From the IMG/VR virus record IMGVR_UViG_2537562173_000012: DNA of 12,009 nucleotides, one strand, 5' to 3'. The position numbers were made by a program, and so were the translations under genes. This document shows positions 3,274 to 9,297 of the stretch, one piece after another (the first letter of the stretch is position 1; every line of letters begins with the position of its first letter). This DNA comes from a virus (Duplodnaviria > Heunggongvirae > Uroviricota > Caudoviricetes). The notes under the pieces are model-generated. The model did no database searches. It saw only the letters and a list, made by a program, of their open reading frames with translations, and was not told where the DNA came from.

Positions 3274-3483
<210 letters not shown>

Positions 3484-3498
3484 TTAGTACATGCAACC

Positions 3499-3567
3499 AT
3501 TATCACCGCCAGAGGTAAAATAGTCAACACGCACGGTGTTAGATATTTATCCCTTGCGGTGATAGAT
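3499..3567. promoter_or_regulatory. OR1-OR2-OR3 operators with divergent PR (minus) and PRM (plus)
   Basis: OR1 TATCACCGCCAGAGGTA at 3501-3517, OR2 3525-3541 and OR3 3548-3564 are the lambda 17-bp operator sequences. PR -10 GATAAT and -35 TTGACT read on the minus strand (plus coordinates 3499-3504 and 3522-3527). PRM -35 TAGATA (3540-3545) and -10 TAGATT (3562-3567) give a leaderless cI mRNA starting at the ATG at 3575. Confidence 0.9.
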
Positions 3568-3571
3568 TTAA

Positions 3572-4288
<717 letters not shown>

Positions 4289-4295
4289 CACGTAA

Positions 4296-4733
4296 ATGAT
4301 TAAAGAACGTATTTCTTATATCATTCCGATTGCGATGGATGAAGGCAACCCAGTAACTCCAGTTCTTATCTATGAAATGGATAAAGACTCCCATGAAGTG
4401 GATCTATCATTTGGCGCTTTTTTTATCGGCCTTAAGGCTACAAAAAAATATTCCATAGGCATTGAGGTTTTCAATGCTCAAGAAATACCGATACCAATTG
4501 ACACAAAACTGTACTCCAACCATAAGTTTTTTACGGTAGCAGAAGCCAACGATGGAGAAACCATCGTATCAACTTCTATGAGAATTAACTTCCCAAGGGT
4601 GAAAATTATCAAGCCTGGGATATTCGAAGTTAGAGCATCACTGGTTAATCCTGATAAAGGCGAAGTAATTGATGTAAAAAGTTCGTTTTTTGACGTGAAG
4701 ATAACAGGATCAGTTCGCGATGAGTTTAGATAA
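4296..4733 (+). CDS. Hypothetical protein, first gene of a cassette in the rexA/rexB position
   Basis: 145-aa ORF starting 8 nt after the cI stop on the same strand, with no obvious SD (possible coupling to cI). It does not resemble RexA, no catalytic motif was recognised, and the stretch looks more A+T-rich than its neighbours by eye. Confidence 0.6.
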   Translation: MIKERISYIIPIAMDEGNPVTPVLIYEMDKDSHEVDLSFGAFFIGLKATKKYSIGIEVFNAQEIPIPIDTKLYSNHKFFTVAEANDGETIVSTSMRINFPRVKIIKPGIFEVRASLVNPDKGEVIDVKSSFFDVKITGSVRDEFR

Positions 4734-4839
4734 CAAGGTTGCTCAGCTTCGTCCAAATCAAAACATATCTCGCCCAATTGGACACTATTCCACTGATGAT
4801 GCATACTCACGGCATGGTGGAGGAAACGGCGGAGGTAAC

Positions 4840-5091
4840 ATGCTTGAGGCTAGAGTTGCAAAGCTAGAGTCTGATGTTGAATACATCAAGCGCGATCTCG
4901 CTGAAGTAAAGTCAGATATAAAATCTGTAGATTCTCGTCTGTCAGGTATTGAGACAAGCATTAGCTCAGCAAAAATCACCATCAAGGCATCTGCGGTCGT
5001 TGTCAGTTTCGTGTTCGCATTTTGCGCCTACATTTTTGGAAGTTATGTTTCCAAAATCCTTGATGCCTTAAACGGACTCGTTCTTAAGTAA
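4840..5091 (+). CDS. Hypothetical small membrane protein (coiled-coil plus C-terminal TM helix), second gene of the cassette
   Basis: GGAGG SD at 4831-4835 before the ATG at 4840 gives an 83-aa product. The same frame is open from ATG 4720, giving the 123-aa form in the ORF track. Heptad-like LEARVAKLESDVEYIKRDLAEVKSDIKSV is followed by a hydrophobic stretch AVVVSFVFAFCAYIFGSYV. A terminator follows directly. Confidence 0.55.
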   Translation: MLEARVAKLESDVEYIKRDLAEVKSDIKSVDSRLSGIETSISSAKITIKASAVVVSFVFAFCAYIFGSYVSKILDALNGLVLK

Positions 5092-5098
5092 CACACAA

Positions 5099-5124
5099 CC
5101 CGGCCTCAGCGCCGGGTTTTCTTT
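5099..5124 (+). terminator. Intrinsic terminator ending the cI-cassette transcript
   Basis: CCCGGC (5099-5104) pairs with GCCGGG (5111-5116) around a 6-nt loop, followed by TTTTCTTT. Confidence 0.7.
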
Positions 5125-5281
5125 ACCTCACGATCCCCTTCACCCAATAACACATAACCAATTGTATTTATTTGAAAATTAATAGATACAACTCACTAAA
5201 CATCGCAATTCAGATCTCTCGATCACCTCCCAAGCCACACACCCCTGCAAAAAAATAAATCTATATAAAAAACATACAGAT

Positions 5282-5344
5282 AACCATCTGCGGTGATAAA
5301 TTATCTCTGGCGGTGTTGACATAAATACCACTGGCGGTGATACT
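5282..5344 (+). promoter_or_regulatory. OL3-OL2-OL1 operators and the PL promoter
   Basis: OL3 at 5282-5298, OL2 at 5302-5318 and OL1 at 5326-5342 match the lambda operator consensus. PL -35 TTGACA (5316-5321) and -10 GATACT (5339-5344) are 17 bp apart. Confidence 0.9.
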
Positions 5345-5592: not shown

Positions 5593-5976
5593 ATGACACG
5601 CAGAACTCAGTTCAAAGGCAATTCACGTTCTCGTCGTCGTGAGCGTTTAAAGGCAAAGGCATTAGCTAACGGCGTACTGGCCCGCGAAGAAGCAATAAGT
5701 TCAGAAGTATTACACCGCCCTACTCTAAGCAGAGCGCAGATTCAGGCTAAAGGTACTCACGAAACGCCTGAGCGCATAGAAGACGCTAAGCCAATTAAGT
5801 TCATAGCACAGGACGTGATCTGGCAACAGAAAGAATACAGACGCAATCTGGAGCGAGCGGCCATTGTGTACGCGAATGAGTTTGGACATAAGCAACCAGA
5901 AACTGGTGTATGTCTTCCAAACGTAGCCATTTACGCGGCAGGCTACCGGAAATCAAAACAACTGACGGCGAGGTAA
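5593..5976 (+). CDS. N: N-like transcription antitermination protein (P22 gp24-like arginine-rich motif)
   Basis: 127-aa ORF with AGGAGG SD 5 nt before the ATG. N-terminal arginine-rich motif NSRSRRRERLKAKALA. First gene downstream of PL and nutL. C-terminus VAIYAAGYRKSKQLTAR resembles what I recall of P22 N. Confidence 0.8.
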   Translation: MTRRTQFKGNSRSRRRERLKAKALANGVLAREEAISSEVLHRPTLSRAQIQAKGTHETPERIEDAKPIKFIAQDVIWQQKEYRRNLERAAIVYANEFGHKQPETGVCLPNVAIYAAGYRKSKQLTAR

Positions 5977-5978
5977 TT

Positions 5979-6371
5979 ATGGGTCAGGAAGAAAAATATG
6001 AGCTTAAAAAGCTCATTGGAGAAGACGCCATAGAAGAAATTGCAGCATTAACAACAGCTATAAAGAATATTAGGTATGCGCTAAATACGCTTATCTCCTC
6101 ATGCGACAAAAATAGCAGGGAATTTTTGATACTTGGCGCAGCTCTAGGAATAGTTGATGCGGCAACGCTTCACCTAATTACTCATGACGATATTCTTATT
6201 GAGCCGTATGAAACATTACTGCTTGTCAGGCAAAAAATGGCTGATGCCGCAGCAAATGGAGACCTTCAACTTTACATCGACTTAAGGAAAGTATTAAGGC
6301 GAATGGTCAGAACTGAAGGAGATATCCCCCTGAACGATGCTAAACAAGGCATACAAGCAAAGCTGGAATGA
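5979..6371 (+). CDS. Hypothetical protein (accessory gene downstream of N)
   Basis: 131-aa ORF from the ATG at 5979, 2 nt after the N stop, with a GAGGT SD. The ORF track shows an upstream TTG-initiated extension that I consider unlikely. Confidence 0.6.
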   Translation: MGQEEKYELKKLIGEDAIEEIAALTTAIKNIRYALNTLISSCDKNSREFLILGAALGIVDAATLHLITHDDILIEPYETLLLVRQKMADAAANGDLQLYIDLRKVLRRMVRTEGDIPLNDAKQGIQAKLE

Positions 6372-6430
6372 CCTTATCCTGATGAAGTATCGAAAGCACA
6401 GTCAGCAATTAGCAAAGCTCTTGGGGAAGA

Positions 6431-6592
6431 ATGATGAATAAGAAATACATTGTTGAAGTTATAGATCGAGAAACGAAAGAAGTAATTAAACATTTCGAAT
6501 TTGATAATTATAGAAAAGCTGACCGCGTCGAAGAAGGATTGTTGCGACAAAGTAATCTCGAAAAATTTTATGTTGTCATGCGATGCGAATAA
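6431..6592 (+). CDS. Hypothetical small protein
   Basis: 53-aa ORF (MMNKKYIVEVIDRETKEVIKHFEFDNYRKADRVEEGLLRQSNLEKFYVVMRCE) with a GGGGAAG SD. It is below the track's length cutoff. Confidence 0.45.
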   Translation: MMNKKYIVEVIDRETKEVIKHFEFDNYRKADRVEEGLLRQSNLEKFYVVMRCE

Positions 6593-6724
6593 GCGCCTAT
6601 AGCAGATTTACGAGTCTGCTATGTGAGCAATGTCGCTCGTAACTAAACAGGAGCCGACTTGTTCTGATTATTGGAAATCTTCTTTGCCCTCCAGTGTGAG
6701 GGCGATTTTTTTAACGGAGGAAAT

Positions 6725-7693
6725 ATGAGTGAAGTAACAGATTTAGTTGTTATTGAAAAAGCAAATGCAATGACTGTATTTCAGTCTGCCGACCAGATTG
6801 AAGAAATCCTTCAAAAGGTTGAACGTGAAGTTATGTCCTTTGTTCCTGATATCACAACGGCAAGGGGCAGAAAGGAGATCGCTTCTCTGGCGTATAAAGT
6901 TGCGCAGACGAAAACATATCTCGATGGTCTTGGCAAAGACCTTGTTGCTGAACTGAAGGAAATTCCAAAGCTAATTGATGCTAACCGCAAGACAGTGCGT
7001 GATCGCCTTGATGAGCTGAAAGCCAAGGCGCGCCAGCCTCTTACTGATTATGAGGAGGAGCAGGCACGGATTAAAGCCGAAGAAGAAGCTAAGGCAGCAG
7101 CCGAAGCTCTCGCAAAGCAAATTGAGTCTGACCATGAAATAGCGATTTTGATGGATCGCGAATTTGACCGCCAAAGAGAAGAGGCAAGACTCAAAGCGGA
7201 GCAGGAAAAGCGAGAGCATGAAGAACGCTTAAAAAGAGAAGCTGAAGAGAAAGCCAGAGCAGAAGCCGAAGCAAAGGCAAAAGCCGAAATTGAAGCAGCA
7301 GCAAGGCGAGAAGCAGAAGCTAAGGCCGCAGCGGAACGTGCAGAGCGTGAACGCATTGAAGCCGAGCAACGAGCACAGCGCGAAGCAAAAGAGGCAGCAG
7401 AACGAGCTGAAAGAGAAAAGCAGGCAGCAATTGAAGCAGAACGCCGAAAAGCACAGGAGGAGGCAGAACGAATCCGGCGCGAGGCTGAAGCAAAAGAGCA
7501 AGCCAGAATAGCAGAAGAAAAAAGAATCAAGGACGAAGAAGAGCGTAGAGCAAAGGATAAAGCTCACCGGAAAGAAGTAAATAACAAAATACTTGCTGAC
7601 CTTATCAAGGTTGGTGCATCAGAAGATGTTGCTAAAAATATCATAACAGCCATCGTAAAAGGCGAAGTATTCGCAACAAAAATAACCTACTAA
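6725..7693 (+). CDS. Hypothetical protein with a long E/K/A/R-rich coiled-coil central domain (TolA domain II-like composition)
   Basis: GGAGG SD 5 nt before the ATG at 6725; 322 aa. Residues about 110-290 are almost entirely Glu, Lys, Ala and Arg in EAEAKAKAE-type repeats, flanked by ordinary N- and C-terminal domains. Confidence 0.75.
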   Translation: MSEVTDLVVIEKANAMTVFQSADQIEEILQKVEREVMSFVPDITTARGRKEIASLAYKVAQTKTYLDGLGKDLVAELKEIPKLIDANRKTVRDRLDELKAKARQPLTDYEEEQARIKAEEEAKAAAEALAKQIESDHEIAILMDREFDRQREEARLKAEQEKREHEERLKREAEEKARAEAEAKAKAEIEAAARREAEAKAAAERAERERIEAEQRAQREAKEAAERAEREKQAAIEAERRKAQEEAERIRREAEAKEQARIAEEKRIKDEEERRAKDKAHRKEVNNKILADLIKVGASEDVAKNIITAIVKGEVFATKITY

Positions 7694-8232: not shown

Positions 8233-8242
8233 GAACAATCAT

Positions 8243-8848
8243 ATGAGCAAAGAATTTTACGCAAGACTGGCAGCTATTCAGGAGAATCTGAACGCGCCAA
8301 AGAATCAGTACAACTCATTCGGCAAATATAAATACAGAAGCTGCGAAGATATTCTTGAAGGCGTTAAGCCGTTACTGAATGGTCTGTTTTTATCAATCAG
8401 CGATGAAGTTGTGTTGATTGGTGATCGGTATTACGTGAAAGCCACGGCAACTATTACCGATGGTGAAAACAGTCATACGGCAACCGCTCTTGCACGAGAG
8501 GAAGAAAGCAAGAAAGGAATGGATTCTGCACAAGTTACGGGAGCTACAAGCTCTTATGCACGCAAGTATTGCCTCAATGGTTTGTTCGGCATTGATGATG
8601 CGAAAGATGCAGATACCGACGAGCATAAACATCAGCAGAACGCAGCAGCAAAGCAATCAAAACCATCACCTACACCTGAACAGGTTCTAAAAGCATTCAC
8701 TGACGCAGCATTGCAGAAAAACACCGTAGAAGAGCTTAAACAGGCGTTCGCCAAAGCGTGGAAGATGCTCGAAGGCACACCGGAGCAGCACAAAGCGCAG
8801 GACGTTTACAACATCAGACGAGACGAATTAGAAGGAGCGGCTGCTTAA
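8243..8848 (+). CDS. erf: Erf-family single-strand annealing recombinase (P22 Erf-like)
   Basis: 201-aa ORF. N-terminus [45 protein letters not shown] matches my recollection of P22 Erf. The TTG-initiated extension in the ORF track was rejected. Confidence 0.85.
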
Positions 8849-9297
8849 TGGCACATTCGATTACTGTAAGACTAAACAAGCCCGCAAGAGAGTTTCAGTA
8901 CGGGGAAAATATCGGATTCAACATCCGTGCTGGCGTTCAGTATTACGATCGCCAGACAAAAAAGAAAGAATGGACAAACTACAGCGCCGTTGTATTTGCC
9001 AAGCCGGGAGCGCAAGCGGATTACTATCGTAGCGTTCTGGTTGAAGGAGGCATTGTAGAAATTACCGGAGAAAACATCAGGGTTGATGTTTATCAGGGGC
9101 AAAATGGTCAATCAATCACTCTTGAATTACTGAAGCTGGCGCTGCGTGAAGAGCTGAAAGATGAGCTGGAAATCGTAATGCGCGTCTATTTTGAAAAGCC
9201 GCGTACCACGGTGGGCTGGAAAGGGCTGATTAACGATCCGCATATGGATAACAGCTTCCAGATCAACGACGGTCTGCGTATCGGAGGTGCTGGATAA
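8848..9297 (+). CDS. Putative OB-fold ssDNA-binding (SSB-like) protein
   Basis: 149-aa ORF coupled to erf (TAATG overlap) with a GAAGGAG SD. The pattern [33 protein letters not shown]...QGQNGQ resembles the SSB OB-fold signature. It lies directly after the recombinase. Confidence 0.5.

Follow-up and report, generated by a model that had tools for sequence, protein, structure and literature searches.

The subject of this report is a cassette of two small open reading frames (ORFs), ORF1 and ORF2, that lies directly downstream of the repressor gene cI in a 12,009-nucleotide stretch of a caudoviricete genome (IMG/VR record IMGVR_UViG_2537562173_000012), referred to as a whole as the window. The window comprises the early region of a lambdoid prophage, its plus strand carrying the operon that is leftward in lambda, and the plus-strand series runs from cI through ORF1, ORF2, a terminator and the OL/PL block to an N-type antiterminator gene and recombination genes. 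The features on which the argument depends are the following:

3540 to 3577, plus strand: promoter PRM, with -35 TAGATA (3540-3545) and -10 TAGATT (3563-3568), inside OR1-OR3 and including the leaderless cI start
3575 to 4288, plus strand: cI repressor of the lambda immunity type, 237 amino acids (HTH_3, E=2.6e-11; Peptidase_S24, E=6.8e-29)
4296 to 4733, plus strand: ORF1, 145 amino acids, the 'type A' partner; a predicted soluble immunoglobulin (Ig)-like beta-sandwich, proposed as a cytoplasmic sensor or regulator binding the ORF2 N-tail
4720 to 5091, plus strand: ORF2, 123 amino acids, with an N-tail, Gly-rich linker, coiled coil and C-terminal transmembrane (TM) helix; proposed membrane effector (phrog_6136, E=3.6e-46)
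4813 to 4844, plus strand: mosaic joint inside ORF2, at the DNA of the Gly-rich motif, where homology breaks
5097 to 5125, plus strand: intrinsic terminator equivalent to lambda tImm, hairpin AACCCGGCCTCAGCGCCGGGTT followed by a T-run
5282 to 5298, 5302 to 5318 and 5326 to 5342, plus strand: operators OL3, OL2 and OL1, identical to lambda
5316 to 5321 (-35) and 5339 to 5344 (-10), plus strand: promoter PL, identical to lambda, 10/12 matches in the promoter scan
5593 to 5976, plus strand: N-type antiterminator gene, 127 amino acids (PF25694 N_peptide, E=2.8e-15)

The cassette is framed by lambda homology on both sides. The 105 bases 5′ of the cI ATG, which hold the OR1-OR3/PR/PRM block, are 100% identical to lambda 37941-38045, and it is from this identity that we take the plus-strand promoter to be PRM; the DNA of 3315-4284, including cI, is 98.5% identical to lambda. 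The homology ends at 4284 and picks up again at 5097, leaving 4285-5096 with no lambda counterpart, and the cassette therefore replaces rexA-rexB exactly between conserved flanks. On the right, the hairpin at 5097-5125 is identical to the lambda terminator just 3′ of rexB; its stem of eight pairs, six of them G-C, is followed by a T-run and starts five bases past the ORF2 stop codon. The OL/PL block (5282-5344) begins approximately 160 nucleotides past this terminator, and the N-type gene, the first gene of the PL operon, forms the right-hand limit of the cI-N slot. A preliminary description of the locus, made from the sequence alone, was correct in its lambda-type cI, in placing the cassette in the rexAB slot and in its intrinsic terminator before OL. 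The two same-strand ORFs that it placed right after cI are also there (145 amino acids, then ORF2), although the intervening gap had been given as 8 nucleotides and the ORF1 ATG (4296) actually lies 7 nucleotides past the cI stop codon. It had further described the segment as A+T-richer than its neighbours, a difference that is real but modest (40.9% G+C for the cassette, with 37.2% for ORF1 and 42.7% for ORF2, compared to 45.9% for the window and 45.5% for cI).

The ORF2 ATG (4720) overlaps the 3′ end of ORF1 by 14 nucleotides. A scan of the plus strand between cI and 5097 found no terminator-like site, and the only promoter-like matches on this strand inside the cassette were two weak sites (9/12), both within ORF2, the regional count being at chance level. 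From this layout we infer that the cassette is an extension of the PRM/PRE operon and is co-transcribed with cI from PRM.

The same slot is variably occupied elsewhere. In lambda-immunity phages and prophages with the same flanks it holds rexAB, HK97 gp48/gp49 or further unknown genes, and E. coli genomes with these flanks additionally carry BstA-C-domain, NYN/PIN, DUF1828, KilA-N, DUF2335 and serine-protease genes there. The alternation with rexAB that the preliminary description had raised is thus observed in lambda-immunity prophages, where BstA-type, NYN/PIN and other genes also take the place of the cassette. The cI-N interval has been described by Owen et al. as a hotspot of mosaic diversity that harbors the abortive-infection systems RexAB and BstA and is served by a highly active prophage promoter (PMC8585504), and a study of Gifsy-1 makes the same point for immunity regions generally (PMC12724215).

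Judged by their conservation, ORF1 and ORF2 are real genes under purifying selection and not chance ORFs, since homologues fall into 20 clusters for ORF1 (at 44-99% identity) and 73 clusters across Enterobacterales for ORF2, and the ratios of nonsynonymous to synonymous substitution (dN/dS) are low (0.107 for ORF1 against gp45 of phage epsilon34). ORF1 belongs to phrog_5893, a family of unknown function. It lacks hydrophobic segments (the maximum 19-residue Kyte-Doolittle mean is 0.81), and its structure model is an eight-strand, all-beta sandwich of generic Ig-like type (predicted local distance difference test, pLDDT, 86.6; predicted TM-score 0.82), in agreement with the earlier view that the first protein is soluble. 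Sequence scans of ORF1 against Pfam, NCBIfam and PADLOC returned nothing and suggested no catalytic family, its family profile had no match among PDB sequences, and the structure search also matched uncharacterised phage proteins of similar size. Two more specific identities were considered and not adopted. Homology to XepA or YomS, prompted by the xepA-xhlA gene order of PBSX, was retained as an analogy only, neither protein being among the top 50-60 structural neighbours listed for ORF1, and a role as a chaperone for a hydrophobic helix was dropped because the structural matches to RhoGDI and ML-domain proteins were too weak (TM-scores of approximately 0.5).

ORF2 belongs to phrog_6136, likewise of unknown function, and consists of a disordered N-tail (residues 1-33), a Gly-rich linker (34-40), a coiled coil (41-91), a TM helix (approximately 92-110) and a 13-residue amphipathic tail. 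In the AlphaFold2 (AF2) model, residues 1-40 have pLDDT values below 50 and residues 41-122 form one continuous helix. From L42 to I88, 14 consecutive a/d heptad positions are all L, V, I or A, which makes seven unbroken heptads, and the register runs on into the hydrophobic segment at 92-110 (Kyte-Doolittle 2.1 for the TM window). Heptads, hydropathy and model thus agree on the coiled coil followed by a C-terminal TM helix that had been proposed previously. This helix is the single hydrophobic segment of the protein. Because it lies at the C-terminus and no signal peptide is present, ORF2 is predicted to be tail-anchored in the inner membrane with its bulk in the cytoplasm.

The length of ORF2 had been left at 83 or 123 amino acids, and only the longer form is supported. 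Over codons 6-40 of the N-tail, dN/dS was 0.20-0.39 in seven of nine comparisons (the remaining two were saturated), the N-tails of ORF2 and its relatives share an LRPNQD motif, and family members hardly differ in a Gly-rich HGGGNGGG motif that lies ahead of M41. The 123-residue form was adopted since the N-tail is under protein-level conservation and the Gly-rich motif is kept, and the start at M41 that would yield 83 residues was rejected on the same evidence. In the commonest version of the C-terminal coiled-coil/TM module (C-module), many residues of the TM helix and the C-tail are at least 90% conserved (F99, C102, F106, G107, Y109 and S111-K123).

The preliminary description had also compared ORF2 to RexB-like or holin-like membrane effectors. 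The first comparison did not hold, as ORF2 is unlike RexB in sequence and has a single TM helix, and the second survives for the architecture only. The Pfam family XhlA (PF10779) matched ORF2 at 19.3 bits (E=1.3e-3), below its gathering cut-off of 34.7 bits; 16 of 24 ORF2 relatives matched at E<0.01 (best E 8.3e-6), and of 95 more distant small relatives only 11 did so at E<0.001. The best E of any relative was 2.4e-6. Matches to FlaC_arch, a plain coiled-coil family, were about equally frequent. With ORF2 and nearly all of its relatives below the Pfam cut-off, membership in the XhlA family was rejected and the architectural resemblance retained. The match to a holin/anti-holin family, phrog_10340, was weak (E=0.0028) and confined to the coiled coil, which also accounts for the only PADLOC match, a CorA-like model (E=0.0039), and the family profile found only generic coiled coils (Lpp and others) among PDB sequences. 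A profile search of 1.84 billion representatives returned 2079 matches, a number that overstates the size of the family because many of them are long proteins with multiple coiled-coil stretches.

We compared 161 loci with a readable ORF2-like gene, taken from contigs that represent one genome per species, from viral contigs of IMG/VR and from single homologues that were looked up. In 160 of these the ORF2-like gene is immediately preceded by a small gene, which usually overlaps it or is only a few bases away, and these partners were classified as follows:

129 loci: ORF1-like beta-sandwich (53 of 76 unique sequences)
23 loci: zinc (Zn)-ribbon protein with a CxxC...CxxCG pattern, 75-150 amino acids (15 unique sequences)
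3 loci: short helical protein (3 unique sequences)
5 loci: other (5 unique sequences)

The ORF1-like, Zn-ribbon and helical classes are mutually unrelated. The Zn-ribbon module occupies the place of ORF1 between the repressor and the ORF2-like gene, as in Enterobacter phage ENT1 (L003, 2563-3279) and at six further loci (L008, L009, L013, L014, L019 and L029), and this partner had no Pfam match above threshold and no PADLOC match. The helical partner was found in Pseudomonas and alpha-proteobacteria (L012 5580-6303, L018 5627-6249 and L022 3596-4275); the surroundings of L022, and those of L020, resemble phage structural genes and not an immunity region. Two of the five 'other' genes are not true partners. 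In Pantoea (L007 5902-6381 and L017 5986-6288) a solitary ORF2-like gene, with neither a small partner nor a repressor, adjoins an AraC-type regulator, and the membrane protein therefore exists outside the two-gene prophage setting too.

The gene preceding the partner is repressor-like in 137 of the 161 loci (approximately 85%). Pfam assigned these repressors to Peptidase_S24 (LexA-type), HTH_3/Phage_CI_repr or Arc, with a DUF6246 gene as the main exception. That the pair is associated with repressors of unrelated families suggests that lysogen expression, and not a tie to any one repressor, has been selected for. Wherever the context is readable, the ORF2-like genes sit in prophages of gamma- and alpha-proteobacteria, including Escherichia, Salmonella, Enterobacter, Klebsiella, Yersinia, Serratia, Vibrio, Shewanella, Pseudoalteromonas, Pseudomonas and some alpha-proteobacteria. 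Of 98 distinct loci, 65 have a hairpin with a T-run after the ORF2-like gene; among 294 control windows the number was 37. Rac-type prophages carry the pair between a racR-like repressor and ydaE, an interval that holds sieB in E. coli K-12.

The relatives also revealed the mosaic joint inside ORF2. From the C-terminal domain of cI through ORF1 and the ORF2 N-tail, up to 4836, the DNA is homologous to epsilon34 and an E. marmotae prophage (L025), whereas homology to phage ENT1 covers 4813 to 5120, a stretch that takes in the coiled coil, TM helix and terminator. Among ORF1-type pairs, partner identity was correlated with the identity of the ORF2 N-tail (Spearman 0.43) and hardly at all with that of the coiled-coil/TM module (0.08), and one C-module, up to 88% identical, was found paired with either ORF1-like or Zn-ribbon partners. 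This pattern fits a unit of 'partner plus docking tail' that may have been joined to an interchangeable membrane module.

Our favored interpretation, on which we find belief and doubt about evenly balanced, is that the cassette is a lysogen-expressed two-protein module that would act on the membrane in phage exclusion or abortive infection. The module is Rex-like in its logic, with a soluble sensor and a membrane effector, but not in its ancestry, and no Rex family appeared among the Pfam, NCBIfam and PADLOC matches of the two proteins. Given the layout, transcripts that start at PRM in the lysogen, and at PRE while lysogeny is being established, would carry ORF1 and ORF2 together with cI and would end at the tImm-type terminator. 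ORF2 would then insert by its tail into the inner membrane, leaving the N-tail and coiled coil in the cytoplasm, where the coiled coil would probably form a parallel oligomer with its heptads in register into the single TM helix. The cytoplasmic ORF1 beta-sandwich may dock on the ORF2 N-tail, because the genes overlap and the N-tail is inherited with ORF1. Upon superinfection, more speculatively, ORF1 could sense a phage component or could disappear following the shut-off of host transcription; ORF2, freed or rearranged, might then compromise the membrane by depolarisation or by holin-like permeabilisation, and phage production would cease.

Several points weigh against this interpretation. 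The trigger and the effector activity are pure conjecture, and a single TM helix with a 13-residue tail on the outside is a minimal effector. The coupling between partner and N-tail could stem from physical linkage instead of binding, because the N-tail DNA adjoins the partner gene. Homology searches led to no characterised family for either protein: nothing exceeded the threshold in Pfam, NCBIfam or the PDB, Pfam and NCBIfam likewise yielded nothing usable for ten alternative partners, and PADLOC (PADLOC-DB 2.0, 5027 models), queried with both proteins and these ten partners, showed no homology to any defence family. The genes are also rare, with the exact cassette in 16 of 5426 complete E. 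coli genomes and ORF2-like genes in 8 of 50,697 phage records. Finally, genes co-transcribed with a repressor do not always serve defence, as Hex of phage 434 modulates repressor cleavage (PMC3564112).

The last of these points bears on one of the alternatives, in which the pair serves the prophage itself by tuning repressor stability or induction, by coupling lysogeny to the envelope or as an accessory to lysis after induction. PRM is shut off after lambda induction, which makes the operon a poor location for a late lysis role, and the occurrence of the pair behind cleavable S24, non-cleavable HTH-only and Arc repressors alike argues against any single repressor mechanism. Optional, swappable cargo in near-identical lambda immunity regions would be unexpected for a core regulatory function. 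We consider such an own function unlikely, even with Hex as a non-defence precedent on a PRM transcript (PMC3564112), with XhlA-like proteins working in the lysis cassettes of Bacillus prophages (PMC6834076) and with distant alpha-proteobacterial ORF2-like genes (L020 and L022) that adjoin phage structural genes in place of repressors. Exclusion at the step of DNA entry shares the expression logic and the slot arguments with an abortive-infection module: ORF2 in the inner membrane would block genome translocation, ORF1 would be accessory or stabilising, and infected cells would survive. P22 SieA, T4 Imm, HK97 gp15 and lactococcal Sie2009 block the translocation of incoming phage genomes in this way. 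ORF2 is predicted to be a small lysogen-made membrane protein, and the residues of its TM helix and C-tail that are at least 90% conserved would be consistent with specific binding to a membrane component of host or phage. Only about 13 residues of ORF2 would be exposed outside the cytoplasm, however, and its bulk, like its obligatory partner, would be cytoplasmic, an arrangement better suited to intracellular sensing than to gate-keeping. Known superinfection exclusion (Sie) proteins of this type work alone, whereas a small upstream gene is present in 160 of the 161 loci, and the Pfam and PADLOC scans found no homology to any Sie family. We see entry exclusion as an improbable account of the pair.

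An addiction pair of the toxin-antitoxin (TA) kind, with ORF2 as a membrane toxin and ORF1 as its labile antidote such that loss of the prophage kills the cell, would account for small overlapping genes encoding a soluble and then a membrane protein, and the co-inheritance of partner and N-tail is compatible with an antidote that binds its toxin; mechanistically it overlaps with the shut-off variant of the exclusion module. Nonetheless, post-segregational killing would be of little benefit to a prophage integrated in the chromosome, none of the 72,556 plasmids searched carried an ORF2-like gene although addiction modules often occur on plasmids, three unrelated partner folds around one constant membrane protein are better suited to diversifying sensors, and neither protein matched a known TA family in Pfam, NCBIfam or PADLOC. 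We regard addiction as quite unlikely. The haemolysin explanation, in which ORF2 is a cell-associated virulence factor, derives from a database name. NCBI labels several ORF2 relatives 'hemolysin XhlA', and the identical cassette is hosted by an enteropathogenic E. coli. The name goes back to the description of PF10779, which concerns the large haemolysin of Xenorhabdus, whereas the members of the family are small phage XhlA proteins. ORF2 itself scored 19.3 bits against the cut-off of 34.7, with only the 11 of 95 small relatives at E<0.001; lacking a signal peptide and ending in a TM helix, it is predicted to be retained in the inner membrane of the producing cell, and its family is spread through prophages of environmental Vibrio, Shewanella, Pseudoalteromonas and Pseudomonas. 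We therefore rejected virulence as a transfer of the name, and it is scarcely credible as an explanation. The idea had been raised for lambda-like phages of Mannheimia haemolytica, in which a gene beside cI for a 161-residue, one-TM protein with an XhlA domain was discussed as a possible virulence haemolysin (PMC4553209). That gene seems to be another membrane gene of this repressor-linked kind, whose interpretation was misled by the name of the Pfam family.

Returning to the lysogen-expressed exclusion module, the comparative data raise a broader possibility, which we advance tentatively and think somewhat more apt to fail than to hold. The ORF2-like proteins may constitute a large, unrecognised family of repressor-linked prophage immune effectors, in which a constant tail-anchored coiled-coil protein bears a swappable disordered N-tail that fits at least three unrelated sensor folds (Ig-like beta-sandwich, Zn-ribbon and helical), and in which recombination at the Gly joint would shuffle sensor and membrane modules among prophages of Enterobacterales, Vibrio, Shewanella, Pseudoalteromonas, Pseudomonas and alpha-proteobacteria. 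If so, the family would represent Rex-like abortive infection in modular form, with a distribution much wider than that of RexAB. Optional exclusion cargo after a repressor is a well-known kind of arrangement, and the location of the epsilon34 genes had been remarked on in 2008; literature searches found no paper on the ORF1/ORF2 family, and the ORF2-like family, its breadth, the three partner types and the mosaic joint appear to be undescribed in the literature searched. The mechanism of RexAB has remained unresolved for more than 60 years, and the cI-N slot is now viewed as a hotspot of prophage defence, of which this cassette (145 plus 123 amino acids and one TM helix) is a simple and tractable occupant. 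Its relatives behind many repressors amount to natural swaps of sensor and membrane modules and could reveal how a soluble sensor controls a minimal membrane effector. As a defence system it would add a family missed by current defence-finding tools, and its recognition would correct the misleading 'haemolysin' annotation from which the virulence interpretation in Mannheimia phages arose. If it is not a defence system, it would still provide a widely conserved and presumably lysogen-expressed function.

The minus strand of the window carries the following features:

3527 to 3499, minus strand: promoter PR, from the promoter scan
minus strand of the window: genes for a DnaB-type helicase and an O-type replication protein, cII and cro

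The immunity region is 99.3% identical to that of a prophage of enteropathogenic E. coli E2348/69, and the cassette itself is 100% identical. The window departs from this prophage (L001) further to the left of the immunity region, and the identity is also interrupted at 5967-6624 and 8234-9276; the window has a gene for an Erf-type annealing protein, while the equivalent place in E2348/69 holds Rad52-type, HNH and ssb genes. The window is thus a mosaic relative of the E2348/69 prophage and not the same prophage. In RefSeq, the only annotation at the intact N-type ORF of that prophage (L001 7305-7688) is a 69-nucleotide pseudogene fragment, 'regulator', at its 3′ end. The plus-strand ORF that follows N in the window (5910-6371) matches phrog_7374 only from residue 24, and its true start is therefore probably the ATG at 5979, directly after the N stop codon; its AbiH match is weak (E=0.21) and meaningless. 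Further along the plus strand, 6671-7693 encodes a 340-residue protein with an extreme excess of E, A, K and R, long stretches like EAEAKAKAE and an AT skew of up to 0.77, which belongs to phrog_1376 (function unknown) and has no Pfam match. The ORF at 8758-9297, also on the plus strand, encodes 179 amino acids, in which an N-terminal part like single-stranded-DNA-binding protein (phrog_44) is fused in frame to a fragment of approximately 45 residues of DAHP synthase (PF00793, E=2.7e-14; approximately 9142-9276). This fragment seems to stem from a host gene of the aroF/G/H type, part of which was captured in the prophage recombination region.

Among known systems, the true homologues of the cassette are gp45 and gp44 of phage epsilon34 (phrog_5893 and phrog_6136, respectively). 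gp45 is 74% identical to ORF1, and gp44 and ORF2 have the N-tail and the first part of the coiled coil in common; the pair sits in the same slot after a different repressor, whereas past the Gly-rich joint gp44 carries another coiled-coil/TM module. This pair is equally uncharacterised. Villafane et al. (2008) described genes 44 and 45 as lying downstream of the repressor 'like rexA and rexB' and as having no database matches (PMC2629481). The preliminary description had recognised neither protein of the cassette, which is fair in that both are uncharacterised but passes over this earlier account. BstA shares with the cassette the slot directly after the repressor, the presumed promoter and the status of optional cargo in mosaic prophages. 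It differs as a single large DNA-binding protein with a cognate self-immunity element, aba, and shows neither homology nor a common architecture.

The architecture of ORF2 is most reminiscent of PBSX XhlA, in that both are small proteins in which a coiled coil leads into a single TM helix at the C-terminus, and in PBSX the gene for a beta-sandwich protein, xepA, directly precedes xhlA (PMC6834076). XepA has been proposed to disturb the proton motive force (PMC6834076), and PBSX lysis was reported to require the one-TM protein XhlA (Krogh 1998, as cited in PMC6834076). On the other hand, the ORF2 gene is part of an immunity operon between cI and OL and not of a holin/endolysin cassette, ORF2 falls below the Pfam cut-off, XepA and YomS are absent from the top 50-60 structural neighbours listed for ORF1, and the host clades are far apart. 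The actinophage pairs Sbash gp30/gp31 and Butters gp30/gp31 resemble the cassette in being prophage-expressed combinations of a cytoplasmic and a membrane protein that published accounts liken to RexAB. Their effectors, reportedly, are multi-TM proteins, and the pairs differ further in their hosts and in their sequences, which are unrelated as compared through the PADLOC scan only.

RexAB itself, the nearest analogue in the proposed mechanism, has no sequence similarity to the cassette. ORF1 is a 145-residue all-beta protein compared to the 279 residues of RexA, ORF2 combines a long coiled coil with one TM helix at its C-terminus where RexB has four TM segments, and ORF1 and ORF2 overlap, whereas lambda has a spacer and an internal rexB promoter between rexA and rexB. 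The two systems nevertheless occupy the same position, from the cI stop codon to the tImm terminator, presumably share the PRM and PRE promoters, and consist of two genes, the first for a soluble protein and the second for a membrane protein.

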